Shown: one piece after another, positions 11,993-51,224 of the stretch | Layout of the letters: each line of letters opens with the position of its first letter | Numbering within the stretch: the stretch's first letter is position 1 | Program-made: the position numbers and the translations under genes | The notes under the pieces: model-generated | The model's database searches: none | Seen by the model: the letters and a program-made list of their open reading frames with translations, nothing else | What the model was told of the DNA's origin: nothing | DNA from: a virus | Lineage: Duplodnaviria; Heunggongvirae; Uroviricota; Caudoviricetes | Virus record (IMG/VR): IMGVR_UViG_2744054962_000001 | Length of the DNA stretch: 64,000 nt | Reading direction: 5' to 3' (one strand)

Positions 11993-12005
11993 GATTAAGC
12001 TCCTT

Positions 12006-12026
12006 AAAAGCGCCCATAGTGGGCGC
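12006..12026 (-). terminator. Rho-independent terminator (hairpin GCGCCCATAGTGGGCGC, copy 2)
   Basis: Identical hairpin at 12010-12026 plus T-run, after stop of 12040..12690. Confidence 0.6.
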
Positions 12027-12039
12027 CAGATTCCATTAA

Positions 12040-12690
12040 TTACGCTTTGAAAGCATCAGCCAGATAGTTATAGAAATCATTTTTAATAAAGCGATATTGC
12101 TGCGTACCAGCTTTTGCGCTTCCCATTCCTTTGACTTTCTCAACAAGTCCAAGACGTTCGCAAAGATTGATAAGCTGGTTGGCTTGAGTGTATCCTGCGT
12201 CTAATTTTATTTCGTTGGCTTTTTTCGCTTCATTCATTAAATCGAAAACAGCTCCATTTGTGAACGTCTCGATCTCGTCGTTAATCATATCGATTAATGC
12301 GAATACACGAGATCCGGACATATCAGCGACGGAATAAACACACTTTCCAGCTTTAATGGATTTAACCAGATAAACCAGTTTTTCCAGAGAATAACTATTA
12401 GTCATTGCATCACGGAAAAATACTTCTGGCGCTTGTTTGCTTGCTTTGATCGCATAGTAGAAAACAGAGCATAATTTTTCGTCTTCTACTGCGTTTACGA
12501 CGTTGTTGATGAAGTAAGCAAGTTTGGTGGTTGCAGCTTGCATATTTGCTTTGTCTGCTTTTGTGTGCGTACCATTTTTATAATGTTCGTTATATGTTTG
12601 AGTTGCCAGATCTGCTTTTTCGCGCAGCTCGTCGGATACAATGGCAGCAGCTTCAATGATGGACTTTTTAGAAATGATAATGTTAGCCAT
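12040..12690 (-). CDS. Hypothetical protein (216 aa), AT-rich island
   Basis: Start moved to ATG 12690 (AAGGA RBS, 8-nt spacer) from track start 12699. Confidence 0.6.
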   Translation of the reverse strand: MANIIISKKSIIEAAAIVSDELREKADLATQTYNEHYKNGTHTKADKANMQAATTKLAYFINNVVNAVEDEKLCSVFYYAIKASKQAPEVFFRDAMTNSYSLEKLVYLVKSIKAGKCVYSVADMSGSRVFALIDMINDEIETFTNGAVFDLMNEAKKANEIKLDAGYTQANQLINLCERLGLVEKVKGMGSAKAGTQQYRFIKNDFYNYLADAFKA

Positions 12691-12985
12691 GATGGACATC
12701 CTTACGAAAAATTAAAATGAATTTATTTTTTACTGTCGTTAGCCAGCTCGCTTTCGACGAGTTCAATTATCAATACGTGAAAAAAGATTGCAAGTGTTTT
12801 TTTTAAATATTCTGCAGGGATGAAAGTCCTAGAAATAAAAGCGAGATCGTCGAAGGTGTTCCCTAAATAAATAATCAATTCGGGCCTTTAACCTTATATA
12901 TTTATACGGGGTGGCATTGAAAGAGTTTTAAATGAATGGCATGTAAAATAATAACCGGACTTAGCCGGTTATTACCCTTATAGAT

Positions 12986-13510
12986 TTAAAATGGAAGGAT
13001 TCGTTCAACCCAATCGAAGAAAACAAGTATTTTTCTGCCGTCTTCTAACTTAAGAGTGACCTGGCAAGCATCAACGCCTCTTGACACCCCTTCTATTTCA
13101 CGACCGTCTGTCATGTAGACCCTTATAGATTGGTCGTTTTGATAAGCCTTGCGACATATCGCAAAAAAGTCACGGCGTGATGGCTGATTGTCAACATAGT
13201 CTGGATGTATTGTTAGCCTACCTTTGAACTCGCGAGCAATGCCATCGATTACACCTGATTCAATTGTGCTAATGCGCTCAAGTGGGAGTCTTATACGATT
13301 TTCTTTATCATATGGAATCGGGCATAAATCTAGCTTATTGCGTGAAGGCATTGTCCCCTGAACGTACATGCAAAACACCTGACCGTCTTCAAGCGTGACT
13401 CTTACAGGAATGTTGTTCTTCCGCCAGAACATAAGTATGTTCTCAGCATGTTCGTAGTCTCGCGGCCAGACTTCAGCCGGTATGCCGTAGGTGATGTCCA
13501 ATGTTCTCAT
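12986..13510 (-). CDS. Hypothetical protein (174 aa), AT-rich island
   Basis: Stop overlaps upstream gene by 4 nt (coupled); no recognised motif. Confidence 0.55.
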   Translation of the reverse strand: MRTLDITYGIPAEVWPRDYEHAENILMFWRKNNIPVRVTLEDGQVFCMYVQGTMPSRNKLDLCPIPYDKENRIRLPLERISTIESGVIDGIAREFKGRLTIHPDYVDNQPSRRDFFAICRKAYQNDQSIRVYMTDGREIEGVSRGVDACQVTLKLEDGRKILVFFDWVERILPF

Positions 13511-14106
13511 TCTGATACTCTTAGAGGTGTTTTCAGCAACCCAAATTTAAATTCTTTGTTACCAACGACAAAGAAGGGAACCTCAACATAGATTTTTTTA
13601 TCGACGGATTTAGAGTTAGCTGTTTTCTGTATGTCACGAACGATACGTTTTGAGATATTTTCATCGATAAACAATACCTTTCCACTTGTATTCCCTTCAG
13701 CCTTGGCGTAAGTAACGATAGGCTCTTCATTGCCAACCCTAATGTTTACTTGGCAACCTGTTGTAGCCATTTCATCACAGTAAAGTGTGCCGTCTTGAAC
13801 TTCTAAAACAATTCCAGATGGCTTCATGGCTTCGTCAGAGCTTACATTAACGTTTTCTGGTACAGCGGTCCCGTTAATTTGCAACCGTAATCTTTCTTTT
13901 CCTCCATTAAGTATTGTTTCTTCTGCGTTGTCTGAGAATCTGAACCAAACTGGCTGATTCAGACCTCGTGATTTGTATTCTACTACGTCTTCGGAGGTAA
14001 ACATGCTGTACGTTTTTTGCATGTCATAGACGAAATCTGATAATGCGTTGGCGGAAAACGCCGGGAGGTATATACAAGCAAGGAGTAACGAAAGTTTCAT
14101 TTTCAT
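13507..14106 (-). CDS. Hypothetical exported protein (signal peptide), AT-rich island
   Basis: Track start 14121 is TTG; ATG 14106 gives MKMKLSLLLACIYLPAFSANA, a signal-peptide-like N-terminus. Confidence 0.5.
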   Translation of the reverse strand: MKMKLSLLLACIYLPAFSANALSDFVYDMQKTYSMFTSEDVVEYKSRGLNQPVWFRFSDNAEETILNGGKERLRLQINGTAVPENVNVSSDEAMKPSGIVLEVQDGTLYCDEMATTGCQVNIRVGNEEPIVTYAKAEGNTSGKVLFIDENISKRIVRDIQKTANSKSVDKKIYVEVPFFVVGNKEFKFGLLKTPLRVSE

Positions 14107-14121
14107 ATCATGATAATCCAA

Positions 14122-14610
14122 TTATTTAACATCACACTTTCTAAGTTTTTCTATTTGTTCTAATTTTTCATGATCATCATTTAGATTTCCTTCGACTATC
14201 TCCGTTTCAAGTTTGCTGATTAGCATGTTAAGTGCGTTGTAGTTATTGCATTTTACTTTGTAGGCGTAGTATGACCTTGTCCCTGGTTTTTGTACACCCA
14301 TATCATTAAAGTTAGAGCTTAAAGTATAACCTTCAAGTTCAACCCCTTTTATTGTAGGAAGAATTATATTTAATGGTTCTAATTTAAATGGGTAGATATA
14401 AATATGTGATATGAAGTACTCTTCTGAAGAGATTTTCTTCATGTCTTTTGTGATTGAAACTGAATATTTACGGTTCCGAGTGATATAAAATTTTGTACAT
14501 TTGTACGGCTCTAAGTTGAATAGATAATATTTTTCTTTAAAAAGAACATCTTTTCCATGTGATATTTTATGTCGTAAAGAGTTAATTATTTTGTTTATAG
14601 AAATACTCAT
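14122..14610 (-). CDS. Hypothetical protein (162 aa), strongly AT-rich
   Basis: K/N/I/Y-rich composition; abuts downstream gene. Confidence 0.5.
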   Translation of the reverse strand: MSISINKIINSLRHKISHGKDVLFKEKYYLFNLEPYKCTKFYITRNRKYSVSITKDMKKISSEEYFISHIYIYPFKLEPLNIILPTIKGVELEGYTLSSNFNDMGVQKPGTRSYYAYKVKCNNYNALNMLISKLETEIVEGNLNDDHEKLEQIEKLRKCDVK

Positions 14611-14720
14611 CTACAGTATCCGACCTTAGTTATCAATTGAAAAGCCTACAAATATCGTTCAGCCAATCAAGAAATTTTTTCAGCCGGAGGTGTGTGCTTC
14701 AAAAAATGTGATGAATGTCA

Positions 14721-14748
14721 CATGCAGGTGCTCTCATACACCTGCATG
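14721..14748 (-). terminator. Hairpin terminator separating two minus-strand operons
   Basis: Perfect palindrome CATGCAGGTG-N8-CACCTGCATG; T-run on minus strand nearby. Confidence 0.5.
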
Positions 14749-14755
14749 TAGACTA

Positions 14756-15322
14756 TTAATCATTCAATAATCTATATTTTCTTTTGATTAAATCTTCACC
14801 TTTTTTGGTGAACACAAAACCAAATTGCGATTTTTTGTTCAGCCTAAGGACTCTGTTATCCAACGCATCGGTTGATGGAATCAATGTTTGATCATCTATC
14901 CAATTTAGTAGCGTAAGAAAGTTCAGCAGCCTCAACGTTGTTGTGCGAAGCTCTTTCGATATATTTTCAATGCTGGCAATTCGTCTTTCTTTTTTCTCAG
15001 GTGGTACAGACAATTGTTCTTGAGGTTTCGTGGATAGATAATCAATTTCGTTTGCAGCATCGAATGATATGTGTGGCGTTATTTTGCTAAAAAAGCCTTT
15101 CGCTGACTCACTTGATAATAAACCAGACCTATTCATATCGTTTGTTATTCTGTACAGGAGTGGACTGTGTTTCATTTCAGGATAACGTTGATAAAAGTTA
15201 AGCAATTCAAAAGCAGCATTAGCGCCAACAAGAAAATCAGAAGGATCGCTGACTTTCCAGAAAGAATGATTTTTCTTAGCGCCAGTGGTGTCAACAAATG
15301 ATAATTCTTTTAACCAACTCAT
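14756..15322 (-). CDS. Hypothetical protein (188 aa)
   Basis: Start moved to ATG 15322 (AAGGAG RBS, 6-nt spacer) from track start 15355. Confidence 0.55.
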   Translation of the reverse strand: MSWLKELSFVDTTGAKKNHSFWKVSDPSDFLVGANAAFELLNFYQRYPEMKHSPLLYRITNDMNRSGLLSSESAKGFFSKITPHISFDAANEIDYLSTKPQEQLSVPPEKKERRIASIENISKELRTTTLRLLNFLTLLNWIDDQTLIPSTDALDNRVLRLNKKSQFGFVFTKKGEDLIKRKYRLLND

Positions 15323-15387
15323 GATGTGCTCCTTTCTAACAAGTGAGCACATCATAGAATTAGTAGATAGGGGGTAAATATGAAATG

Positions 15388-15666
15388 TTACGGCAACCTG
15401 CTCAGTATTTCCTCTAAATCTTTTTTTGTCATATTGGAGTTTTCATAGATGCGCATGATTTTCTCACGCGTCTTAGCGGAAACCCCAACAGCAGATGTGA
15501 CTTTGTCAAATTCAGCCATAGTCATCGTCTCCAGAATGGCATTGATAACTTCAGCTTTAGACATCTTGATTTTTTTCTCTTTGAGTTTTATTTGAAATTT
15601 TCCAAGTTTTTCATTGGCCTTATCAGACAATGCCACTTGGCAATAAGTTGTTTTCTTTTCGCTCAT
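15388..15666 (-). CDS. Hypothetical protein (92 aa)
   Basis: ORF begins 2 nt after helicase stop; K/E-rich. Confidence 0.5.
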   Translation of the reverse strand: MSEKKTTYCQVALSDKANEKLGKFQIKLKEKKIKMSKAEVINAILETMTMAEFDKVTSAVGVSAKTREKIMRIYENSNMTKKDLEEILSRLP

Positions 15667-15668
15667 AA

Positions 15669-17228
15669 CTAATCTCGTTTCAGAACTCCAAAATCGAATG
15701 CGCCATCAATAGGCAATACACCTTCTGCAAAGCCAGGTGTGGTGTCGATGATGTGTTTTCGCTCATAAGAGTGAGACAACAGGTATTTGTTGCTAATGTC
15801 AATGAAATCAGTGATAAAACACACGTTTGCCTGATTCTTCTTGGCTCGTAAGCCACGACCGACACGCTGTCTCATTTCAACTTCTGCTTTCCCACCACCA
15901 GCAAGAATGACCGCACCAACGCTTGGCACATCAACACCAACATCCAGAATAGTCGAGCCTATTAAAACATCTATTTCACCAGACGCTAAACTGTTCAGCT
16001 TTGCTTGCCTTGTCGACTGGTTCGATTCCCCATAAATGAAGTCAACTCTAAGGCCGGACTCTTTCATCATTTCCATCAGGATTTGCCCGTGGCGTTTAAG
16101 ACGAACCAGAGTCATACAATTGAGAGAATGTTGCTTATAGAGCAATGCTTCGCGAACAATGGCCTCATTACGTCCCAAATTATACACGATCCCCAACTGA
16201 TAAGCCTTTTGGTAGGCTGTGCTCATACCTACTCTAAAATTAAGGTGTTTGTTGGCAAGTTCCGCCTTGATTCTGACCTCGTCTGGCTTGTAAGCAACTT
16301 TATGATAAAGGAAGTACGGTTTTGCCAGAATGCCTCGATCAATCAGGTACTTTTCTGTGACTTTAATTTCAATTCGACCGGCCACAGCCATCAGACGCAT
16401 GTTGGCTTCTGTAGAATCCTTCATGAACGGCGTGGCCGTAAGCGCCAGACGATAGTCTGCGTTCACACATAATCTGGCAATGTCATAGAAATTAGAGCCT
16501 GAAGACTCATGCGCTTCTTCCAGAATAAGCAGAGACACACTTGAAAGGAAGCGTTTCACTAGCTCCCGACGTTTGAGGTGGTAGCTCTTTTTATCTGGTG
16601 TTGCATCGCGTGGTGGTTCTTCAAGGAAACTTGCCAGAGTTTGAACTGTAGCGACGTTGATATGTCGTGATACCTGGAACTCACCCGAGCCAATGACTCC
16701 AACCTTTTGGTCTTTTAACCACGGTTCGCCATTTTTGGCGCGGTAGTCGATGGATCTCTGGAAGTTTTCGGCCATTTGAAACATCAGAACAGAGCGGGTT
16801 GTTAAAAATAATGTCATTCGACCGATACGTGCAGCTGCTTTGCAGGCAACATTAGATTTCCCGCCACCAGTAGCGATCTGCGCAATCATCATTCCCTCTC
16901 GAACCAGTGTTTCCACAGTCTGATCCTGATACGCATAATCAGGATTGTATGGGAATGGGTTAACCGCCGGATTTGGTTTTCCAAGCGCCGGGGCTTTGTC
17001 TTTGCGGATATGAACACATTTGATGCCCGCCTTGTTCAAGTTCGCCGCTACAGGCTTGGCAAAGCCTGCAGGGAACGAGTTTTTACTCCAGTTGAACATT
17101 GTGCTTGTGCCCTTCCAGTCGCCAGTCTCGACTTCGTAGCTCAACATCTGTTGCACCAGTTGCTTTACCTTGTCATCTGCGCCAGAAATAAGCGCATTAA
17201 CTGCGTTAGATACAATCCGAACAGTCAT
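15669..17228 (-). CDS. Superfamily 2 (DEAD/DEAH-type) DNA helicase
   Basis: Walker A ATGGGKS, motif II LEEAHE, motif III TATP, motif VI QRVGRGLR. Confidence 0.85.
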   Translation of the reverse strand: MTVRIVSNAVNALISGADDKVKQLVQQMLSYEVETGDWKGTSTMFNWSKNSFPAGFAKPVAANLNKAGIKCVHIRKDKAPALGKPNPAVNPFPYNPDYAYQDQTVETLVREGMMIAQIATGGGKSNVACKAAARIGRMTLFLTTRSVLMFQMAENFQRSIDYRAKNGEPWLKDQKVGVIGSGEFQVSRHINVATVQTLASFLEEPPRDATPDKKSYHLKRRELVKRFLSSVSLLILEEAHESSGSNFYDIARLCVNADYRLALTATPFMKDSTEANMRLMAVAGRIEIKVTEKYLIDRGILAKPYFLYHKVAYKPDEVRIKAELANKHLNFRVGMSTAYQKAYQLGIVYNLGRNEAIVREALLYKQHSLNCMTLVRLKRHGQILMEMMKESGLRVDFIYGESNQSTRQAKLNSLASGEIDVLIGSTILDVGVDVPSVGAVILAGGGKAEVEMRQRVGRGLRAKKNQANVCFITDFIDISNKYLLSHSYERKHIIDTTPGFAEGVLPIDGAFDFGVLKRD

Positions 17229-17270
17229 AAACCTCTTTCCTTAGTGCCTTTTGTATGTTATTTGGCTATT

Positions 17271-17293
17271 ATAATAAGTAAGTGATTACTTAG
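17271..17293. promoter_or_regulatory. ATAAGTA-family motif (palindromic TAAGTAA-GTGA-TTACTTA) in divergent promoter region
   Basis: Between helicase (-) and ParB-like operon (+); member of repeated ATAAGTA motif family. Confidence 0.5.
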
Positions 17294-17310
17294 TGGATTG
17301 TAGCAATAAA

Positions 17311-17991
17311 ATGGATGTAAAAATCACGATTTTGCAGGTTGATGTTGCCAACCTTCGCCCGAATACCTGGAACACCAATTCGGTTGGTGCGCAGAATTTT
17401 GAAAAACTGAAAGGTTCTATCGAAAAATTGGGCTTTTTTAAGCCAATTTTGGCTCGTGAACTTGAAGATGGATTTTTTGAAATCCTCGGCGGCGAACATC
17501 GCTGGCGTGCCGCTATTGAGCAAGGAATTTCAACGGTTCCAGTGCTTTCTGTGGGCAAAATTAGCGATGTCGTAGCTAAACAGATGTCACTGGTGGACAA
17601 CGAGCGATACGGTGAAGACGACCAAATCGCATTGCAACGCTTCATTGAAGAAATTCAGTCAGAACTTGACTATCAACTGTCTGAAATCGCCCCGTATGAC
17701 GACGAAATCTCGATGGTTTTAGCAAAAGAGGCGGCAATCGACCTTGAAGCACTGGAGGCGTTGTCTCGTGGTAGTGATGAGCCTGTCGATACCGACAAAC
17801 GAGAGAAAACCGAACGTGTGGGGGCGGAACATCAGACCATGCGCTTCAAAGTAACTTTCGATGCGTCAGATCGCGTTGCAGAAACCATAAAAAACATCAT
17901 CAAAGAGCAGGCTATTAACACCGGTAATGAAATGGAGAACGCTGGTGAGGCTCTGGTGTGGCTGGTCGACTACTACAAGGAGCGTATGTAA
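17311..17991 (+). CDS. ParB-like nuclease-domain protein 1
   Basis: ParB/Srx-type N-terminal domain (GGEHRWRAA); ATG 17311 preferred over track GTG 17293. Confidence 0.65.
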   Translation: MDVKITILQVDVANLRPNTWNTNSVGAQNFEKLKGSIEKLGFFKPILARELEDGFFEILGGEHRWRAAIEQGISTVPVLSVGKISDVVAKQMSLVDNERYGEDDQIALQRFIEEIQSELDYQLSEIAPYDDEISMVLAKEAAIDLEALEALSRGSDEPVDTDKREKTERVGAEHQTMRFKVTFDASDRVAETIKNIIKEQAINTGNEMENAGEALVWLVDYYKERM

Positions 17992-18659
17992 TGACCAAAA
18001 AGTTTGAAATCGTATATCGCGACCCGGCAGATCTTATTCCCTATGAGATGAATGCCAAAAAGCATGATGAACAGCAGATCCGAGATCTAGCCGCAGCCAT
18101 TAAAAAGCGCGGATTTGACCAGCCAATTACGGTCGATAAGAACGACGTAATTATTACTGGCCACGGCCGCCGTGAGGCTGCAATTTTTGCTGGACTTGAG
18201 CGCGTACCGGTTATTGTTCGCGATGATCTCAGTGATGACGAGGTTCGTGCGAAGCGCCTTGAAGATAACCGACTTGCCAGCATTGATTACGATGCAATTA
18301 AGCTACAGAAAGAGCTTGAGTCGCTTGTTCTGGACGATATCGAGGTTTTCGGCTTTGAAGAGCGTGAGTTGAATGTTCTCGTTGGCAGCATGACAGAAGA
18401 AATGGACACCGACTCGCTAGTTATCGATCTTGGCGAAGAAACTAAACGACAGAAGGATGAACACACCGAGATCAGTCGTGAAGTTGCAGCGGAAGAAGTA
18501 CGTGTTGTCGACGTATTGGGCTTTAAAACGCTTCCTGCTGGCTCTGCCATTGTTGTTGGTGATTTGCTTGCCCACATGGAAGAAATGACGGGAGAAAGCG
18601 GGGTAGACGCATTTGTGGCATATGCGGAGAAGATCTCTTCCGGGGAGATGGCTGCATGA
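17958..18659 (+). CDS. ParB-like nuclease-domain protein 2
   Basis: Second ParB-type N-terminal domain (ITGHGRREAA); overlaps upstream gene by 34 nt; acidic C-terminal half. Confidence 0.6.
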   Translation: MAGRLLQGAYVMTKKFEIVYRDPADLIPYEMNAKKHDEQQIRDLAAAIKKRGFDQPITVDKNDVIITGHGRREAAIFAGLERVPVIVRDDLSDDEVRAKRLEDNRLASIDYDAIKLQKELESLVLDDIEVFGFEERELNVLVGSMTEEMDTDSLVIDLGEETKRQKDEHTEISREVAAEEVRVVDVLGFKTLPAGSAIVVGDLLAHMEEMTGESGVDAFVAYAEKISSGEMAA

Positions 18660-19321
18660 GCAAATACATCATCAACGTATCGTTTCAGACACGCGTAAAT
18701 AAAACCACGCGCACGTTGGAAATCGCTGAGTCGTTCGGGCTTGGCCTGGACGAAAAAGAGTGGACGCTTTACGACAATCTGGAGCTGGAAGTGAAGCAGG
18801 GCGATGTGGTGTACATCACCGGCCAATCCGGTTCCGGCAAATCAGTTGTGCTGCGCGAGTTGCAACGACAGATGAAGGATGAAGGGCTGTCTGTAGCCTC
18901 CATCGATGATTTTACCTTCGATAATGAGGTTAACGTCATCGATCAGTTGGGCAAAACGACCAGCGATGCGCTTGGGTTGTTATCTATGGCTGGTCTGAAC
19001 GATGCATATCTGTTTGTTCGCAAGCCTTCTGAAATGTCAGACGGTCAGAAATATCGTCTCAAGATTGCCAAACTGATTGAGTCAGGCGCTAAAGTGTGGG
19101 CTGCTGACGAGTTCGGTGCTGTTCTAGACCGTGTAACCGCTCAGGTTGTGGCATCTAACCTCCAGCGTGCCGCTCGAAAGGTTGGTGCAACGGTAATGGT
19201 GGCGACGACTCACGAAGACCTGAAGAACGCGCTGCGCCCGGATATGCAGATCACCAAGCACTACAAAGAACGCGTGAAGGTGGAATATCACAATGGTAGT
19301 CATGATGAGGTTCATTTATGA
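18656..19321 (+). CDS. Stand-alone ABC-type ATPase domain protein
   Basis: Walker A GQSGSGKS, signature MSDGQKYRL, Walker B VWAADEF, H-loop TTHEDL; ATGA overlap with neighbours. Confidence 0.75.
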   Translation: MSKYIINVSFQTRVNKTTRTLEIAESFGLGLDEKEWTLYDNLELEVKQGDVVYITGQSGSGKSVVLRELQRQMKDEGLSVASIDDFTFDNEVNVIDQLGKTTSDALGLLSMAGLNDAYLFVRKPSEMSDGQKYRLKIAKLIESGAKVWAADEFGAVLDRVTAQVVASNLQRAARKVGATVMVATTHEDLKNALRPDMQITKHYKERVKVEYHNGSHDEVHL

Positions 19322-20208
19322 CGGACATCATCATTAAACGCTACCGCCCTGAAGAGTTTCCGCGTCATCTGGACTTTCTGGAGCGAATGACTGTCACAAA
19401 GGGAACTGTAGAGGACTGGTACGCTCTTAAGTCGCTTCACTACAAAACAGACGGCAAACCTTTCGCGCCAACTTACTATCGCTGCGAACTTGATGACCGT
19501 CTGGTGGGCGTCGTGGTTATGGCTTACCCGAAACTACTGCTGGCACCTCGCCACCGCATGTTTCCTAAGTTGAAACCAACCACTAATACCACCGTGGCTA
19601 ACCAGTACTGGGGTCGGTACGTGAATAACAACTTTGCGGTGATCAGTCGCTCAGTTGTGGATACTCAGTATCGTGGCGTAGGCGTCTCTTATCGAATGAT
19701 TAACCTGGTTAGCAGGATGCATGACCGGCCAATCATTGAGATCCAGTCCTCGATGAGCAAATACAATCCCTTCGCCATGAAAGCAGGGTTTAAGTTCATC
19801 CGCCCTGAGCGACCGAAGAGCTATGAAAGTGCACTGCGTGTATTCCAGCGCCATTTCCGTTCCGACCCGGGTGATAACGAGGCGATCGTCAAAGAGTTGT
19901 TCGCAATGAGCGAGTCTCGTCGTCGCCGTGCACTGCGTGATCTGGTGGCGGACTACCACAAGAACAGTTCCCTGGCAAAAGCTGGGCGGAATCGTGGCAC
20001 GACGATTCAGGACATTGCCGACAGTCTGGTGGACGAGGCCAGCATTGTGAAGCTGCTCAAGGACATTCACAACCTGAGCTTTACGTCTCCGTTGTATGGT
20101 GTGTACCGAAACCCTGACTTTGGTCGTCGACTGCCTGACACGCTGCCACTGCTGGCATTCGACAAACAACCTTTGGATAAACCGTTAGAAATTGCTTTAC
20201 CGGCATAA
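19318..20208 (+). CDS. Hypothetical protein with weak GNAT-like motif (296 aa)
   Basis: YRGVGVSYRMINLV resembles GNAT motif A; ATGA overlap with ABC ATPase gene. Confidence 0.45.
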   Translation: MTDIIIKRYRPEEFPRHLDFLERMTVTKGTVEDWYALKSLHYKTDGKPFAPTYYRCELDDRLVGVVVMAYPKLLLAPRHRMFPKLKPTTNTTVANQYWGRYVNNNFAVISRSVVDTQYRGVGVSYRMINLVSRMHDRPIIEIQSSMSKYNPFAMKAGFKFIRPERPKSYESALRVFQRHFRSDPGDNEAIVKELFAMSESRRRRALRDLVADYHKNSSLAKAGRNRGTTIQDIADSLVDEASIVKLLKDIHNLSFTSPLYGVYRNPDFGRRLPDTLPLLAFDKQPLDKPLEIALPA

Positions 20209-20217
20209 GGATTTGCC

Positions 20218-20484
20218 ATGACGTTAACCGATAAACAAAAGGACATCATCAAAACGCTCAATCTCGGTTATGAGCGAGGTCATTTACTTGATCTGGACGA
20301 ATTGCTTGAAGTTTTGCCGTACAAGACAACCAAGCAAAGTATCCAGTTCTCAATTCGCGCTCTGATAAAAAAGGGGCTGGTGGAGAAAGGGCATACGCGC
20401 CAACGCAGTGACAATCGCTATCACCGCCGAACTCTTGGGTTAACCACTTTAGGTCGAGCCAAAGCGAAGTTACTGGTGATGTAA
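20218..20484 (+). CDS. Small basic protein, possible winged-helix DNA binder (88 aa)
   Basis: AAGGA RBS; K/R-rich; fold assignment tentative. Confidence 0.4.
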   Translation: MTLTDKQKDIIKTLNLGYERGHLLDLDELLEVLPYKTTKQSIQFSIRALIKKGLVEKGHTRQRSDNRYHRRTLGLTTLGRAKAKLLVM

Positions 20485-20508
20485 TCGGTCTGGGAGCTTA
20501 TTTAAAGA

Positions 20509-20565
20509 CCTGCTTCTGTATATATAAATAATAAGTAACTTATTAAATATATATACGGAAGCAGG
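20509..20565. repeat. ~57-bp AT-rich imperfect palindrome, copy A
   Basis: CCTGCTTC arms (rc GAAGCAGG) flank core AATAAGTAACTTATT; ~95% identical copy in opposite orientation at 51170-51224. Confidence 0.8.
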
Positions 20566-20601
20566 CTTAATAAGACATGCCAGACCTAATTAAACACCCC
20601 A

Positions 20602-20642
20602 GAAAACAAGTTGGTTAGCAGATGCAGTAAACAAGTTGTTTT
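20602..20642 (+). promoter_or_regulatory. Two tandem operator palindromes upstream of terminase genes
   Basis: GAAAACAAGTTGGTT at 20602 and AAACAAGTTGTTT (perfect) at 20629. Confidence 0.55.
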
Positions 20643-20681
20643 AGAGCGCATGGACGCGCTCTGTGTGTTTTAGAGGGATCT

Positions 20682-21314
20682 ATGACGGTCGAAAAAGACG
20701 AGGTAAAAACTCGCCTGACACCAGCGGAGTGGGCCGAAGCTGAAGCCAAATGGACGTCAGGCGAATATACACTCTCAAAGCTGGAGGAAGAGTACGGCAT
20801 TCGTCGTGAAACACTCTCCAGACATTTCAAAAAGCGAGGATTAGAGAAAGGCGCGGACTCTGTTGGGAAGATGGTTCGTGAGTCTCTTAAATCTGACGCA
20901 GAGCTTCGCGCTAAAGCCCGTGCGGAAAAGATAGAAGAACGTCGTACACGTTATGACGGCTGGGCGTATGCGTTGGGGCAGATGGTGATGGTCGAAGTCA
21001 CTACGGCCAAACGTGAGGGTAAGCCTTTAGGGGCGATTGAGGATTCTCTCAAGAGCTTACAGAGAGCCAGTAATACCCTTGCAAAATGCTTTGAAGTTTC
21101 GTCCAAAGCATTGGGCATGGATCATGCGGAAAATGACGAGGAAGAAATTCCGAACCTGGTATTTGGTGAGCTTACGCCTTCCCAGGTGGCGAAATTACGT
21201 CAGGAAGACGACGAGCCTGAAATCATCGATGACGAATTGCTTGAGACGTTGGAAGAAGAAGCTCTAAGCGAATTTGATGCGACAGATGATGGAAGTGAAG
21301 GGGAGGACGAATAA
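20682..21314 (+). CDS. Terminase small subunit (putative)
   Basis: N-terminal HTH-like segment, acidic C-terminus, directly upstream of TerL with overlapping stop/start. Confidence 0.55.
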   Translation: MTVEKDEVKTRLTPAEWAEAEAKWTSGEYTLSKLEEEYGIRRETLSRHFKKRGLEKGADSVGKMVRESLKSDAELRAKARAEKIEERRTRYDGWAYALGQMVMVEVTTAKREGKPLGAIEDSLKSLQRASNTLAKCFEVSSKALGMDHAENDEEEIPNLVFGELTPSQVAKLRQEDDEPEIIDDELLETLEEEALSEFDATDDGSEGEDE

Positions 21315-22570
21315 TGGCAATCCCGTCCTCGCTCAGTCTTGTGCAACTGCATTCTGGACAGATGAAAGTCTTCCAGTCTCCGCATCGATTTAAAGTTGTT
21401 TGTGCTGGTCGACGCTGGGGAAAATCCCGGTTGTCGATCTCCACTATTATTCGTGCGGCGGCAAAGGAAAAAAAGCAAAGAGTCTGGTATGTCGCTCCTA
21501 CTTACCAGATGGCTCGCCAGATTTTGTGGGACGATCTACAGGAAGTTCTGCCTCGTAAGTGGGTTAGGAAAAAGAACGACACCACGATGACAATCGTGTT
21601 GAAGAACGGTTCGGAGATCGCCCTCAAAGGTGCTGATAAGCCTGACACTCTGCGCGGCGTAGCGTTGCATTTTGTAGTGCTTGATGAATTTCAGGATATG
21701 AAGGCTGACACCTGGTACAAGGTGTTACGACCTACTCTTTCATCGACACGCGGCGGTGCGCTGATCATTGGTACGCCAAAAGGCTTCTCGGAATTTCACA
21801 AACTGTGGACTATAGGCCAGAACGTAGAGCTGCAAAGAAAGGGACAGTGGAAGAGCTGGCAGTTTGTAACTGCCGATTCTCCGTTTGTACCTACGGCGGA
21901 AATTGAAGCTGCTAAGAACGATATGGACCCCAAATCGTTCGCTCAGGAGTACCTGGCGAGCTTTGAGAACATGTCCGGGCGCGTTTACTACCCGTTCGAT
22001 CGTAACGTGCATGTAAAACCGCTTCAGTTCAACCCTCGGTTGCCTATATGGGTAGGGCAGGACTTCAACATTGACCCGATGTCTTCCGTAATTTTGCAAC
22101 CTCAGCCAAATGGTGAGCTATGGGCAATTGATGAATTGGTGCTCTTTTCCTCTAACACGGCAGAGGTTTGTGATGAGCTTGAGAGACGCTTCTGGCGCTG
22201 GAAATCACAGATAACGGTATTTCCAGATCCGGCAGGTGCTTATCGCCAACATGCTCGCGGGGAGTCTGACGTCGACATATTCAAAGAGAAGGGATTCTTA
22301 CGTGTCGATTATTCGAAAAAGCACCCGCCAATTGCGGATCGTGTTAATGCTGTTAACCGAATGCTGATGACCGCATCTGGAGATATCCGGCTGTATATCG
22401 ATCCGAAGTGCAAGCATTTGATTGATTCACTGGAAAAAGTCATCTACAAGCCTGGAACACGAGATATGGATAAGACAGGTGGCATTGAGCATAGTGCAGA
22501 CGCATTGGGCTATCCAGTACATCGTAGGTATCCAGTCAAAAACCGTGTTATTCTTGGTGGTTCTCGATAG
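21314..22570 (+). CDS. Terminase large subunit
   Basis: 418 aa; Walker A CAGRRWGKSR, Walker B-like VVLDEF; position before portal. Confidence 0.85.
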   Translation: MAIPSSLSLVQLHSGQMKVFQSPHRFKVVCAGRRWGKSRLSISTIIRAAAKEKKQRVWYVAPTYQMARQILWDDLQEVLPRKWVRKKNDTTMTIVLKNGSEIALKGADKPDTLRGVALHFVVLDEFQDMKADTWYKVLRPTLSSTRGGALIIGTPKGFSEFHKLWTIGQNVELQRKGQWKSWQFVTADSPFVPTAEIEAAKNDMDPKSFAQEYLASFENMSGRVYYPFDRNVHVKPLQFNPRLPIWVGQDFNIDPMSSVILQPQPNGELWAIDELVLFSSNTAEVCDELERRFWRWKSQITVFPDPAGAYRQHARGESDVDIFKEKGFLRVDYSKKHPPIADRVNAVNRMLMTASGDIRLYIDPKCKHLIDSLEKVIYKPGTRDMDKTGGIEHSADALGYPVHRRYPVKNRVILGGSR

Positions 22571-22596: not shown

Positions 22597-24171
22597 ATGG
22601 AATTGAACGACAAACAAATTAAGGATCTGGTGGCGCGACGCCACCCGGAATACGAAAAGAAAAAAGAACATTGGGACTTCCTCGCCAGCACTTACGCTGG
22701 CGGGCGTGGTTGGTTTACAGACAATATCTTTCGTTACTTTAAAGAGGGAGATCAGGAGTTTAAGGAGCGAGTTGAACGTGCTTATCGCTTCAACCACACT
22801 CGTGAGGTGGTAAACCTCATCAACAAATATCTCTTTAAAGAAGACATTCATAGAAATATCGAAGAGGCACCAGAGCAGATCCGCAATTTCTGGAAACGTG
22901 CGACTCGCCAGAATGCCTCTATTGACTCATTTATGGCCGCTATTGATTTGCAGTCGTCTATTTACGGTCGCATATGGGTTGTTGTCGATAGCACGATGAG
23001 TGGTGATGTTGAGTCAGTAGCTGACGAGAAAAAGAAAGATGCTCGCGCCTACGCCTACTGGATTTCACCTCAGCAAATGCTGGATGTGGCATGGGACGAC
23101 GACGGGAATATGTTATGGGCGTTAATTGTGGAAGTCGCTCGCGATGACGCAGATCCTTTTACTTCTACAGGTCAGGAATACCAACGTTATCGTCTGTGGA
23201 CACAAAACGAGTGGTATCTGTTCCGTGAGGAAGTGAAGAAGGGCGCTGGTGGAGCAGGTCGCCGTCAGGCAAAAGTTATTTTAGAGGATAGCGGTGAGCA
23301 TAATCTCGGCGTAGTTCCTGTGTTTCCTGTTGATTGTATTGGAGAAAGTGAATCACCGTATTTCAGCCCATCGTTGATCGATGATATCGCTTATCTTGAT
23401 CGTGCGGTTGCAAACTATCTGTCAAACCTTGATGCCATTATTCAGGATCAGACATTTAGCCAGTTGGCTATACCAGTACAGTCGCTTTTACCTGGTGATG
23501 AAAACCACACTAAAGTGCTTGAAATGGGCACAAAGCGAGTCTTCACCTACGATTCTGAAGGTGGAAACCAGCCGTTTTATCTGTCACCAGACCCGAAACA
23601 AGCTCAGATGATCATCACTACGATTAAGACGGTGATTAACGAAATCTACCATTCAGTTGGTGTAGCTGGTGAGCGAACGAAGCAGGACAACGCACAGGGA
23701 ATCGATAACTCATCTGGTGCCGCAAAAATGTATGACTTCCAGCGTGTAAATAGCTTGCTTGTCACAAAAGCAGAGCGTCTGGAAAGGGCTGAACGCCAAA
23801 TCATGCTACTGGTTGCGAAATGGATGGGGGTAGATCTGGACGAAGACCACTCTTTAATTGCGTATCCAGAAAGTTTCGATATTCGTGGCCTTACTGATGA
23901 ATTTTCTGTTGCCGAGAAACTGTCATTACTTCAGGCACCGGACTCTGTACGTCGTCACCAGATGGAAATGCTTATTGAGAAGATTTTCCCGAACATTACT
24001 GAGGCGATGAAAAAGGAATTTGATAAAGATCTCTTGAATTTTCCGCCAAAAAATGATCTAAATACTCTTGAAAATAAGTCAGTACTTACTTATGATCAAG
24101 GCGCAGCCCAAGAAAGCGGGCAAGATCAACCCCGAGGGAATGGGGACTCATCTACTCAAGAGAACGAGTGA
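22597..24171 (+). CDS. Portal protein
   Basis: 524 aa immediately after TerL; AAGG RBS. Confidence 0.75.
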   Translation: MELNDKQIKDLVARRHPEYEKKKEHWDFLASTYAGGRGWFTDNIFRYFKEGDQEFKERVERAYRFNHTREVVNLINKYLFKEDIHRNIEEAPEQIRNFWKRATRQNASIDSFMAAIDLQSSIYGRIWVVVDSTMSGDVESVADEKKKDARAYAYWISPQQMLDVAWDDDGNMLWALIVEVARDDADPFTSTGQEYQRYRLWTQNEWYLFREEVKKGAGGAGRRQAKVILEDSGEHNLGVVPVFPVDCIGESESPYFSPSLIDDIAYLDRAVANYLSNLDAIIQDQTFSQLAIPVQSLLPGDENHTKVLEMGTKRVFTYDSEGGNQPFYLSPDPKQAQMIITTIKTVINEIYHSVGVAGERTKQDNAQGIDNSSGAAKMYDFQRVNSLLVTKAERLERAERQIMLLVAKWMGVDLDEDHSLIAYPESFDIRGLTDEFSVAEKLSLLQAPDSVRRHQMEMLIEKIFPNITEAMKKEFDKDLLNFPPKNDLNTLENKSVLTYDQGAAQESGQDQPRGNGDSSTQENE

Positions 24172-31111: not shown

Positions 31112-34100
31112 ATGTCACAAAACGTAGAGTTTATCCTGTCGCTGGAAGACAAACAGTTTACAGCGTCAATCGATCGTGCGGGGAAACTGCTTACTCGATT
31201 TGGTGAGCAGGTAACAAAGCCTGCTCAAAAAATCCAAACCTTTGAACGCTCTTTGGGTTCGGTCGCCCGTATCATTGGCGTTCTGGAAAGCAAGCTCGAT
31301 TCTACGGCAGATAAACTACAGGATGTAGCTGCCGGTTTTGAGCTTGCTTCAGATGCTACGCGTAAAATGCGTGGCAACATCACCAGCCTCAATTCTGGTC
31401 TTAAAGCCCTGATTGAGCGCGTCGATACGACAACTTCTTCAGTAGATAAACTCACCGCGTCATTACGTAAAGTGCAATCAGAGCTAAATGATTTCTCTGA
31501 TTGGGCGACCTATGCAAGCAAAAGCGCAAGCCGCTTTGGTACGGAGGCCAAAGAAGCCTCTGCGTCCGTGAGTGGCATGAATACGCGCCTTAATACCACG
31601 ACGAAGCGACTCAGTAATTGGGGTGTCACAACGAGTCAGGCTGCCGAGGGACTGAAAAAGGTTCGTGAGCAGATGGACGAAGTTATCGGACGTCAGCAAC
31701 TGATTAGCAAGCCGGTACGCGTTCGTACATCTGGAAGTGGCGATGGTGGTAGCGGGCGGCGTAGCGGCGCTTCTGGCCATAGCGGTAAAAGTAACGAAGG
31801 AGGTATGTTCTCTGGCCTTCGTGGCAACATTTTCCTGCTTGGCGAGATCGGAGATGCAGCCAGAACGGTTACTGACATCATGTTTGGGTGGCAGAAGCCT
31901 ATTGTTGAAGCTGCGGCCGAAATGGAACGTATGCGGGTGATGCTTCGAGGGTTGAATAAGGAGAAGTCCAACCCGGGCCAGGCTGCCGCTGATGATATGA
32001 AGTACATCGTAGACATGGCGCAAAATGCGCCGTTCGCGATGCAGGCGTTAACAGATTCCTTCGTGAAGTTTCGTTCTGCTGGCTTAGATCCAACCGATGG
32101 TTCTCTGAAGGCGCTGGTGGACTCCGTTGCTCGTTTTGGTGGTGATAGTGAGCTGTTGAAACGTGCGGCTGTGGCCGTTCAGCAGATGTCCGGTAAGGGC
32201 GTTGTGTCAATGGAAGAGCTACGTCAGCAATTAGGTGAAGCCGTTCCTAACGCGATGCAGGCAATGGCAGACGCCGCAGGCATCACTATGGGGGAACTGA
32301 CTAAAGCCGTTGCCAGCGGTACGGTTGAGGCAAAACAGGCGTTGTCTCTGATGTTTGTTGGTCTGCGTGCGGAGAATGAGAACGCAGCGAAAGACATGAT
32401 GCAAACCTACACAGGTGCGCTGGCGCAACTTCAGACGTCATTCACGTTATTTGCTGATCGGGTTGGTCAGGCCGGATATCTGGATTCTCTATCGAAGGGG
32501 ATGAAAGAACTGGCTTCAATCATGAATAGCGCCGAAGGGATTTCGTTTGCCAATTCTTTAGGCTCGGGGTTAACGACGGCAATCGATGGGTTGCGTCAGC
32601 TTGCTCAATGGTTAGCAAAGAACCAAGAGCTGGTGATTAATCTCGGTAAGGTCGTGGCCGCGATGGTTGCGTTCAAACTGATGCGAGCAGGGATCATGGG
32701 GGTAGTTGGCGCAGGCAGCCAGATGGTTAGCACCTTTGCCACGATGGCGACCGCCATACAGACTCCATTTAACCTCGGCGCTACAGCAGTAACCCGATTC
32801 AATCGTGCGGCACGTATGGGGCTGGCTCCGATCCCCTCTCTTATTTTCGCCATCCGTGGGGCGATTACGGGGCTTAAAGGCGCTTTTGCTGGATTAACGG
32901 CGTTCATTGCAGCAAACCCTATAGGGGCAGCATTTACAGTTGCCACTGTAGCTGTTGCTGGCCTAATCACGTACATGACCATGCTCCGCAGCGAAACTTC
33001 AAAGGTCGTTGACGAGATTAGGAAAATACCAGAGGCGATGACGGCGGCCAAACGTGCACAGATGGCGGAGTATAAAGCGCGTCTTGAGCAACAAATCACG
33101 CAAAAGGAACAAGAGTTAAAATCTGGCGAAAAGGTGGTTTATGGGCCGGGTATGGCCGGAACTACAGTAAAGATTAATCAGGATGAACGTAAGCGTATAG
33201 AAAATGAGCTAAATGACCTTCGTAAGAAACGCGATAAAACTACTGGGGCAATTGAACGCGGAGACATTGCTGTAGCCAAACGTCTTGCAAAAGATGCGGC
33301 AGAATCACAGATAGAGAAAATACGGGAAGAGAATAGAGACTTTGCGGCAACATTCGTGAAAGCCCGGCAGGAGGCTCTGGATAAGATCCAGAAAATCAAT
33401 GATGACGGTTCACTTTCAGATGACGAAAAGAACAAGCTATTGGCACCGTTACGTGAAACGGTAAACAAAAGCTATCTGGAGCCTGCGCAAAAACTGGTTG
33501 ATTCACTTTCTTCTCGTAAGAATGCTGTCGAGGGGCAAATAGCCACTCTTAATGATCAGCTTGAAAAAGCGAAAAAGGAAGGAAACACCGAGCAGATCAA
33601 GAAACTGCAAGGCAGTATTCGTGGTTATCAGGAGAATTTGGAAGTCGTCGCTCAGGAACTGACTCAGGCAGAGTTCGAGAGAGATAACGCTGCCAAAACT
33701 GGTAAGGGCGTAATGTCAAACCAGGGGACTGTTCTGGGGTTAGGTACAACTGATAAAGCTGCTCAGAAGGCGCTGGCGCAATATATGCGAAACCAGATGG
33801 ATTCTGCGACTTATCAACGTACTTTGCCTGACGGCACTCCGATGATGGACTTCGAAGGTAAGCCGATTATTGGGCCTAAACAACTCAAGACGCAGCTTAA
33901 TTTGCAGAAAGCATCCAGTGCCAGCTCTCTGGAGAAAATGAGCGATGAAGAGCGTGCCGCAGCCATTGCCGCACTTACTAAAGCTCGTGAACAGGATGCC
34001 GCAGCCGCCGAGAAAGCAGCCCAACGATCAGCTAATGCCTCGCAGCGTGCGGCCAAGAAAGAACAGGCAGCGCAACAGAAACTGGCGGCCGGATATCAGA

Positions 34101-51169: not shown

Positions 51170-51224
51170 CCTGTTTCTGTATATAAATAATAAGTAACTT
51201 ATTAAATATATATACGGAAGCAGG
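51170..51224. repeat. ~55-bp AT-rich imperfect palindrome, copy B
   Basis: CCTGTTTCTGTATATAAATAATAAGTAACTTATTAAATATATATACGGAAGCAGG; flanking TTAAAGAC indicates inverted orientation relative to copy A. Confidence 0.8.

Follow-up and report, generated by a model that had tools for sequence, protein, structure and literature searches.

A phage GNAT protein coupled to an ABC ATPase has been predicted to introduce an uncharacterized acyl modification into a DNA base (Iyer et al., 2013, as restated in PMC7824862); the example given in that restatement is Tenacibaculum phage pT24. Our literature search, in which the 2013 prediction was represented by its 2021 restatement, found no experimental work on ABC-GNAT proteins. 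A subclass of phage thymidine dioxygenases requires a ParB-like regulator (O'Toole et al., PMC13229309), and DpdB is described as a ParB-like ATPase needed together with DpdA (PMC10164549). ParB folds are also found fused to phage methyltransferases and to a bacterial acetyltransferase, and they bind CTP, ATP or GTP. Here we analyze an operon in which two ParB-like genes precede an ABC ATPase gene and a GNAT gene, at positions 17311–20208 of a 64,000-nucleotide stretch of viral DNA (IMG/VR record IMGVR_UViG_2744054962_000001, Caudoviricetes); the whole stretch is referred to as the window. At even odds (a probability of roughly 0.5), the operon is a ParB-assisted, ATP-driven cassette for acyl modification of DNA that acts before packaging.

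The window is, by nucleotide similarity, an SSU5-type E. coli phage-plasmid. This follows from region 17000–21400, which shares 98–99% nucleotide identity with Escherichia phages CMS-2020a, PhiR41_1 and Cyrano, 85% with Salmonella phage SSU5 and ∼80% with Klebsiella phage-plasmids. The operon DNA was found in 247 of 5,426 complete E. coli genomes (∼4.6%) and was plasmid-borne in every case. The GNAT protein is 96% identical in the Klebsiella relatives despite only 80% DNA identity. E. coli K-12 and Salmonella LT2 have served as hosts for growing relatives.

ABC and GNAT proteins and their single-chain relatives

An earlier analysis of this DNA, made from the letters alone (the sequence-only reading), described four open reading frames (ORFs) encoding two consecutive proteins with ParB-type N-terminal domains, a complete ABC domain with no transporter partner and a GNAT-like protein. 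All of this was borne out, and the four ORFs are on the plus strand. The stand-alone ABC ATPase (18656–19321, plus strand) scores 50.1 bits against Pfam ABC_tran (5.8e-13; cutoff 25). Its translation has an intact set of motifs: Walker A at G56–S63, an MSDGQ signature at 127–131, Walker B/E at 147–152, a D-loop at 155–158 and H186. No gene for a permease or other membrane protein was found in the operon or its flanks, and in place of a permease, relatives of the protein carry fused GNAT, ParB or PolB parts. The neighboring gene (19318–20208, plus strand) encodes a protein with the fold of a GNAT acyl-CoA-dependent acyltransferase, a helical insertion of ∼90 amino acids and an invariant YG.Y.NPD strand. 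A sequence search of the PDB with the GNAT-family profile gave only a spurious coiled-coil match.

The ABC protein is 45% identical over 211 amino acids (BLASTP, E = 6e-63) to the N-terminal half of a 478-residue fused protein encoded on an archaeal-virus-like contig, and the GNAT protein is orthologous to the C-terminal half of such fusions, with 25% identity to the same chain (BLASTP, E = 2e-19). The large terminase (TerL) of the window is barely alignable with that of this contig. The ABC protein and the fused family also share an N-terminal motif, F.T...T.R...AFGLG.DE. Single-chain ABC-GNAT proteins of the COG2401 type thus resemble the window pair in both halves, in this motif, in an LSDGQ signature, in GNAT motifs A and B and in a C-terminal Y..W.NP strand; they too are viral and often lie near ParB and terminase genes. 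The window differs from them in having two coupled genes with two ParB paralogues ahead and a putative winged helix-turn-helix (wHTH) gene after. Judged from these similarities, the ABC and GNAT genes are the split form of a widespread viral single-chain ABC-GNAT protein. The split, here two ORFs joined by an ATGA overlap, is common to the SSU5/nickie lineage.

Searching the GNAT-family profile against 1.84 billion representatives retrieved 959 relatives, most of the distant ones being chains of 450–500 amino acids in which an ABC_tran domain precedes a GNAT-like C-terminal half. A scan of viral contigs with the GNAT alignment gave only near-identical SSU5-type loci, and queries from the fused family were used instead. 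All 120 top matches listed for the fused family scored above 570 bits. The named sources among the matches listed were almost all metagenome-assembled genomes (MAGs) of Bathyarchaeia, Nitrososphaerota and Thermoproteota, with a single bacterium, Heliorestis convoluta; two Planctomycetota MAGs with a fused ABC-GNAT gene were found in the genome scan. Many members are labelled “ABC-type ATPase with predicted acetyltransferase domain” by JGI, and the Cyrano record carries the label [quoted passage not shown] Phage pT24 has a member of this ABC subfamily in gene 038 (E = 6e-35), with a helicase nearby. A short ORF, 037, with a GNAT-like QGLGLG motif follows it; the two (together 32066–33238) are annotated separately, each as “ABC transporter ATP-binding,” and reflect either a gene split in nature or a frameshift introduced by sequencing.

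Some members of the fused family carry additional domains. In P0207/P0179 a family B DNA polymerase stands in front (1260 amino acids, 12 contigs), P0162 has a LAGLIDADG intein in the ABC domain, and P0154 (Nitrososphaerota) ends in a TFIIB repeat. P0189, P0201 and P0238 (∼880–910 amino acids) have an N-terminal extension of 400–470 residues ahead of ABC-GNAT. This extension contains a P-loop, with a weak match to the Pox_A32 packaging ATPase (E = 0.016), and a PD-(D/E)xK-like motif, PDI(I/V)…(I/V)(S/A)(V/I)KS, which suggests a nuclease/ATPase partner of ABC-GNAT in some lineages.

ParB-like proteins and the cassettes they head

ParB-like 1 (17311–17991, plus strand; ATG 17311, or GTG 17293 as an alternative start) and ParB-like 2 (17991–18659, plus strand) score 49.9 bits (3.3e-13) and 35.0 bits (1.5e-8), respectively, against Pfam ParB_N, for which the cutoff is 26.3. 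ParB-like 1 has an N-terminal ParB-CTPase fold (motifs NPWNTN, GGEHR..A and DN.RYG), an acidic linker and a conserved C-terminal domain of ∼55 amino acids; it matches phrog_723 at 2e-79. A profile search of the PDB matched it to ParB/Noc/Spo0J at 1e-12, confined to the first ∼100 residues, and no PDB match was obtained past approximately residue 100 of either protein. ParB-like 2 has the motifs PY..N.K.H, GHGRR.A and RL.DN and matches phrog_930 (1e-112) and phrog_498, “DNA methyltransferase” (5e-32). Its N-terminal domain is of the kind fused to phage DNA methyltransferases and matches the N terminus of the PADLOC MTase_II model at 2.9e-17. The two proteins are full-length paralogues (hhalign 99%, E = 2e-18, 207 columns), with 33% identity in the N-terminal domain. 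The arginine-rich GxxRxxA-type motif (GGEHRxxxA, GHGRRxAA) is invariant or nearly so among relatives at ∼26–44% identity. Patterns in the ParB C-terminal domain recall a ribbon-helix-helix, with no match to Arc or CopG by hhalign; an AlphaFold2 model of ParB-like 1 from a shallow alignment had a pLDDT of 39.6.

In canonical ParABS systems (ParB/Spo0J/Noc/KorB) the same N-terminal ParB-CTPase fold with a GxxRxxA-type motif is found. The window proteins depart from them in their C-terminal domain and in their score against the canonical ParB model TIGR00180 (43 bits, below the 58.45 cutoff). No helix-turn-helix (HTH) centromere-binding domain was detectable in them by sequence, no ParA gene was found in the operon, and a repeat search gave no parS-like repeat arrays.

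An 88-residue gene (20218–20484, plus strand; phrog_900, 1.9e-45) starts 9 nt past the GNAT stop codon and makes the operon one of five genes; it had been overlooked when the operon was described as having four. Its product is probably a winged-helix DNA-binding protein, a weak assignment resting on matches to Sta1/Lrs14 (E = 0.003–0.004) and LexA_DNA_bind (0.07). The gene follows directly after the GNAT gene in every SSU5/nickie-type locus examined. Small wHTH genes (PadR, HTH_45 and TrmB-like) also adjoin fused ABC-GNAT genes in archaeal proviruses.

The operon recurs as a unit in other genomes. In the SSU5/nickie/RHEph10/Stenotrophomonas/Xanthomonas lineage the order helicase, ParB, ParB, ABC, GNAT, wHTH, TerS-like, TerL, portal is invariant, and it is retained among phages whose proteins are only ∼40% identical. 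The sequence-only reading had inferred an obligate co-expressed unit, and a single functional unit is supported: thousands of relatives have ABC and GNAT in one chain, and in some the chain includes ParB as well. Tight coupling, however, is not obligatory, since in some members of the lineage small ORFs are interposed among the operon genes while the order is conserved.

ParB partners were found in several forms. Relatives of 650–700 amino acids combine a ParB-fold N terminus, a Zn ribbon, ABC and GNAT in one chain, and this ParB-fold extension is homologous to ParB-like 2 (hhalign 97.5%, E = 6e-12) and to ParB-like 1 (97.0%, E = 9e-11). The ParB profiles also detect the N-terminal extension in three viral contigs (L253, L255 and L256), with TerL downstream in L255. 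In Gordonia phage Sisko, gp1 is a ParB, gp2 an ABC protein with Acetyltransf_7, gp3 a Formyl_trans_N protein and gp4 the terminase, with 4-bp overlaps. Leptospira phage LE4 has a ParB (gp14) and an ABC+GNAT protein (gp15) followed by TerL. Across the Sisko, Sour, CaiB and LE4 set, ParB homology ranged from E = 1e-7 to 1e-23. The order in Streptococcus prophage 315.4 is ParB_N, ABC, an 89-residue ORF, ASCH, a DUF5681 protein, TerL and portal; the ASCH gene (L330:5613–5990) stands where other phages have GNAT. Sisko gp3 (L331:1814–2464) is annotated “tRNA-methyltransferase” and is a Formyl_trans_N protein (Pfam E = 4.5e-10); by its sequence family it may be a second acyl- or formyl-transfer enzyme of the cassette and a possible hint to the chemistry.

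In the Gordonia phages of genus Sourvirus the terminase genes share 76–81% DNA identity, and the content between the leading ParB gene and the terminase varies. In Sisko-type phages this slot holds the ABC-GNAT gene and the formyltransferase-like gene. In the Sour cassette (genes 1–7) it holds a TGT/DpdA homologue, QueC, QueD, QueE and GTP cyclohydrolase (FolE), which together form a 7-deazaguanine DNA-modification set. In the CaiB cassette (genes 1–5) a kinase and further enzymes stand there with a TET/JBP oxidoreductase; the authors of the CaiB report describe nucleotide-modification enzymes ahead of the terminase with 4-bp overlaps (PMC9302106). The ParB proteins of Sisko, Sour and CaiB match the ParB-like 1 and ParB-like 2 profiles of the window at E = 1e-15 to 1e-23. 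With such a swap behind matching ParB proteins, ABC-GNAT takes the place of known DNA base-modification pathways. The window has the same layout, with coupled enzyme genes headed by ParB immediately before the terminase.

Two of these pathways invite closer comparison. Cassettes of the ParB-dependent thymidine dioxygenase (TET/JBP, 5mYOX; O'Toole et al., PMC13229309) also begin with a ParB gene, have 4-bp overlaps and lie directly upstream of the terminase, and the CaiB ParB matches the window profiles at E = 1e-15 to 1e-18. They differ from the window in having one ParB rather than two and in using Fe/2-oxoglutarate dioxygenase and kinase/transferase steps with no ABC-GNAT. The DpdA/DpdB 7-deazaguanine system likewise pairs a ParB-like NTPase with a base-modifying enzyme, in the same pre-terminase slot in Sour; unlike the window, it relies on transglycosylation and preQ0 biosynthesis genes and has no acyl-CoA enzyme. 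Mom of phage Mu, a GNAT-fold protein responsible for adenine carbamoylmethyl/acyl modification, differs in acting without an ATPase or ParB partner. No specific sequence relationship of the window GNAT protein to Mom was apparent; generic GNATs scored equally.

Proposed acyl modification of DNA and competing explanations

The mechanism that we favor would have the ABC ATPase and the GNAT acyl-CoA-dependent transferase as its catalytic core, present as two polypeptides here and as one chain in most relatives. The ABC domains would dimerize on ATP, engage duplex DNA and bring a nucleobase to the active site of the GNAT protein, where acetyl or another acyl group would be moved from acyl-CoA onto the exocyclic amine of the base. 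The obvious candidate targets would be N4 of cytosine and N6 of adenine. ParB-like 1 and ParB-like 2, probably as a heterodimer, would act as a nucleotide-switched, DNA-associated loader or activator of ABC-GNAT, by analogy with the ParB-like partners of DpdA transglycosylases and thymidine dioxygenases. The small wHTH protein may give site or promoter specificity. The marked DNA would then be packaged and would resist host restriction or other DNA-sensing defenses. The folds and motifs, the split and fused forms, the ParB fusions, the placement ahead of the terminase and the exchange with known modification pathways are observed; we infer the DNA substrate, the acyl group, the target base, the heterodimerization and loader role of the ParB proteins, and the protection. 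ASCH proteins hydrolyze N4-acylcytosines (PMC6972931) or serve as readers of modified bases, and the ASCH gene in prophage 315.4 gives a weak hint that the mark might be N4-acylcytosine.

All informative gene surroundings of the family are DNA-centered. TerL lay within 600 bp in 62 of the 109 fused-gene loci that had at least 2.5 kb of upstream sequence (121 loci in total). In the Heliorestis prophage the ABC-GNAT gene is upstream of the terminase and adjoins methyltransferases. In a 98-kb phage it is flanked by RecJ/DnaB and Pol III alpha, and it also occurs at the ends of Nitrososphaerota and Bathyarchaeota proviruses.

Several observations weigh against acylation of DNA by a ParB-assisted cassette. 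SSU5-type phages are not reported to have any modified base, and the structural matches of the GNAT protein are generic. Prophage 315.4 has no recognizable GNAT, though its ParB and ABC genes are present. The loci with TerL adjacency are related metagenomic contigs and do not represent independent events, accessory genes in general tend to collect upstream of the terminase, and some copies lie away from it, within replication modules or at the ends of proviruses. With profiles derived from the window, a separate ParB match was obtained in only 1 of the 121 fused loci, so ParB is an optional partner; none was detected beside ABC-GNAT and TerL in archaeal proviruses.

The position of the genes could instead reflect a role in packaging or DNA maturation, in which a ParB-recruited ABC-GNAT would acetylate lysines or N termini of DNA-bound proteins (host nucleoid proteins, terminase, portal or capsid proteins) and so clear or ready concatemeric DNA for the terminase. 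Tight, repeated TerL adjacency across unrelated virus lineages is what such a role would produce, the SF2 helicase is a conserved neighbor, and the Pox_A32-like P-loop (E = 0.016) and nuclease-like motif in one ABC-GNAT extension point weakly in the same direction. We nevertheless regard this explanation as unlikely. The 45% identity that the ABC half retains from bacterial to archaeal viruses argues for a universal substrate, and host chromatin proteins are not the same in the two domains. What the cassette swaps with are base-modification pathways and not packaging factors, and the ParB partners documented so far belong to enzymes that modify DNA bases. Nor need the acceptor be associated with DNA at all. 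TmcA and NAT10 are ATPase-coupled GNATs that acetylate tRNA, and by this precedent the GNAT protein might serve counter-defense or host takeover by acylating RNA (for example, tRNA cytidine), ribosomal components, aminoacyl-tRNA or a signaling nucleotide, with the ParB-like proteins as NTP-binding regulators rather than DNA clamps. ParB folds do bind ATP, GTP or CTP and have non-DNA roles too, phage nickie has tRNA genes close to the module, and ASCH proteins act on tRNA ac4C (PMC6972931). Fusions to DNA polymerase B and to a TFIIB repeat, replication and packaging genes as neighbors, and the match of the window ParB proteins to those heading DNA-modification cassettes all speak for DNA instead; the GNAT protein had no PADLOC match, and no anti-defense literature was found. 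We rate a non-DNA target as slightly less probable than a role in packaging.

That the operon maintains or silences the plasmid, the ParB-like proteins being centromere-binding or KorB-like clamps and the ABC ATPase replacing ParA, is the reading closest to current annotation and in our judgment highly improbable. RefSeq labels ParB-like 1 a “ParB/RepB/Spo0J family partition protein,” and Pfeifer et al. count the two ParB genes of related phage-plasmids as partition functions. The 50 kb inspected of NZ_JBVDMJ010000004.1, an E. coli plasmid nearly identical to the window and about twice that length, include a RepB-family initiator but no annotated ParA gene and no separate canonical ParA/ParB pair. 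A palindrome core, described below, is shared by the promoter of the operon and either end of the late block. Partition would not account for ParB-ABC(-GNAT) sets in integrated prophages, proviruses and non-plasmid phages, and coupling to a GNAT has no place in it. The ATPase has an ABC nucleotide-binding domain and is not a ParA-type Walker ATPase, and the shortfall against TIGR00180, the restriction of PDB matches to the N-terminal domain and the absence of parS-like repeat arrays all stand against it.

DNA acylation, which we prefer, leads to a broader proposal: that N-acylated nucleobases (e.g., N4-acyl-deoxycytidine or N6-acyl-deoxyadenosine), introduced after replication by an ATP-driven ABC-GNAT that is loaded by NTP-switched ParB clamps, form a new class of DNA mark that is conserved from E. 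coli phage-plasmids to phages of Gram-positive bacteria, actinobacteria and spirochetes and to archaeal tailed viruses, and that shields packaged genomes from nucleases of the host. We put this forward tentatively, at somewhat less than even odds.

The finding is real, and it is uncharacterized yet not categorically new, because the ABC-GNAT pairing had already been predicted computationally to be a DNA-modification enzyme. The sequence-only reading went too far in proposing an undescribed system, given that the Cyrano annotation names the group and that the restated prediction (PMC7824862) already includes acylation of a DNA base. Its statement that the genes fit no known module holds to the extent that no PADLOC defense model or NCBIfam curated family explains the operon, but ABC-ATPase/GNAT is a named orthologous group. 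In PADLOC the GNAT protein had no match, the ABC protein gave partial matches to mad3/mad8 and to generic ATPases, and the ParB-like proteins matched only the N terminus of the MTase_II model; the NCBIfam search of the operon proteins gave no informative equivalog match. Among the functions it had listed, DNA modification or anti-restriction has the strongest support.

The operon genes are mis-annotated as transporter and partition proteins. [quoted passage not shown] The split, double-ParB version in an element borne by E. coli makes the 2013 prediction directly testable. These plasmids are common in clinical Enterobacteriaceae, and restriction evasion, if true, would bear on their spread.

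Gene junctions, palindromes and flanking regions

Both ATGA overlaps described previously were found, at 18656–18659 (gctgcATGAgc) and 19318–19321 (tttATGAcgg). The 34-nt overlap claimed for the two ParB-like genes depends on a GTG start at 17958. Most likely, the two genes instead overlap by 1 nt, in the sequence TAATG, because ATG 17991, which overlaps the TAA stop of ParB-like 1 (gtaATGacc), has AAGGAG 8 nt upstream, the PHROG alignment of ParB-like 2 begins at residue 12 of the GTG-17958 ORF, and GenBank annotations place the start at 17991.

As had been stated, the operon lies between an SF2 helicase and a terminase pair and is separate from the latter. The helicase (15669–17228, minus strand; ResIII/DEAD 1.1e-14 and 1.7e-14 and Helicase_C 3.6e-13 in Pfam; phrog_16) is divergently transcribed and adjoins the operon throughout the SSU5/nickie/RHEph10-type lineage. 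The 82-bp divergent control region between them (17229–17310) contains an inverted repeat, TAAGTAA-gtga-TTACTTA, at 17275–17292; no sigma-70-like promoter scored in this region. Downstream are a TerS-like DNA-binding protein (20682–21314, plus strand; phrog_867, 2e-100), TerL (21314–22570, plus strand; Terminase_6N, 3e-9; phrog_2/10250) and a portal protein (22597–24171).

The operon and the terminase genes are separated by 197 bp, and a near-perfect AT-rich palindrome of 57 bp (20509–20565; 28-nt arms, 89% complementary) lies within this gap. A second copy is found at 51170–51224, and the two copies bracket a block of ∼30.6 kb that starts with the TerS-like, TerL and portal genes. The palindrome core, ATAATAAGTAA, recurs in the helicase/ParB control region (17271–17292); it has three exact copies and, with one-mismatch matches included, six, against 1.1 expected. 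That the 57-bp palindrome is a DNA target conserved along with the module was considered and rejected. Seven distant relatives lack it in the corresponding gap, and it is therefore lineage-specific, probably an operon boundary (terminator or operator). The GenBank records of SSU5 and Cyrano are linearized within the first copy (window ∼20545).

A hydroxymethyl-pyrimidine precursor route was likewise rejected: the “thymidylate synthase” of SSU5 scores as an ordinary ThyA (TIGR03284, 221 bits) and gives no indication of a 5-hydroxymethyl-pyrimidine pathway. Upstream of the helicase, at 12000–16000, the GC content of the window is 0.36–0.40 against 0.46–0.50 elsewhere, and the minus-strand ORFs there match only PHROGs of unknown function. 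The gene content of SSU5, Cyrano and PhiR41_1 differs in this segment, which is probably a variable accessory region. On the near-identical plasmid NZ_JBVDMJ010000004.1, positions 72377–72853 encode a dihydrofolate reductase that RefSeq names trimethoprim-resistant DfrA51.

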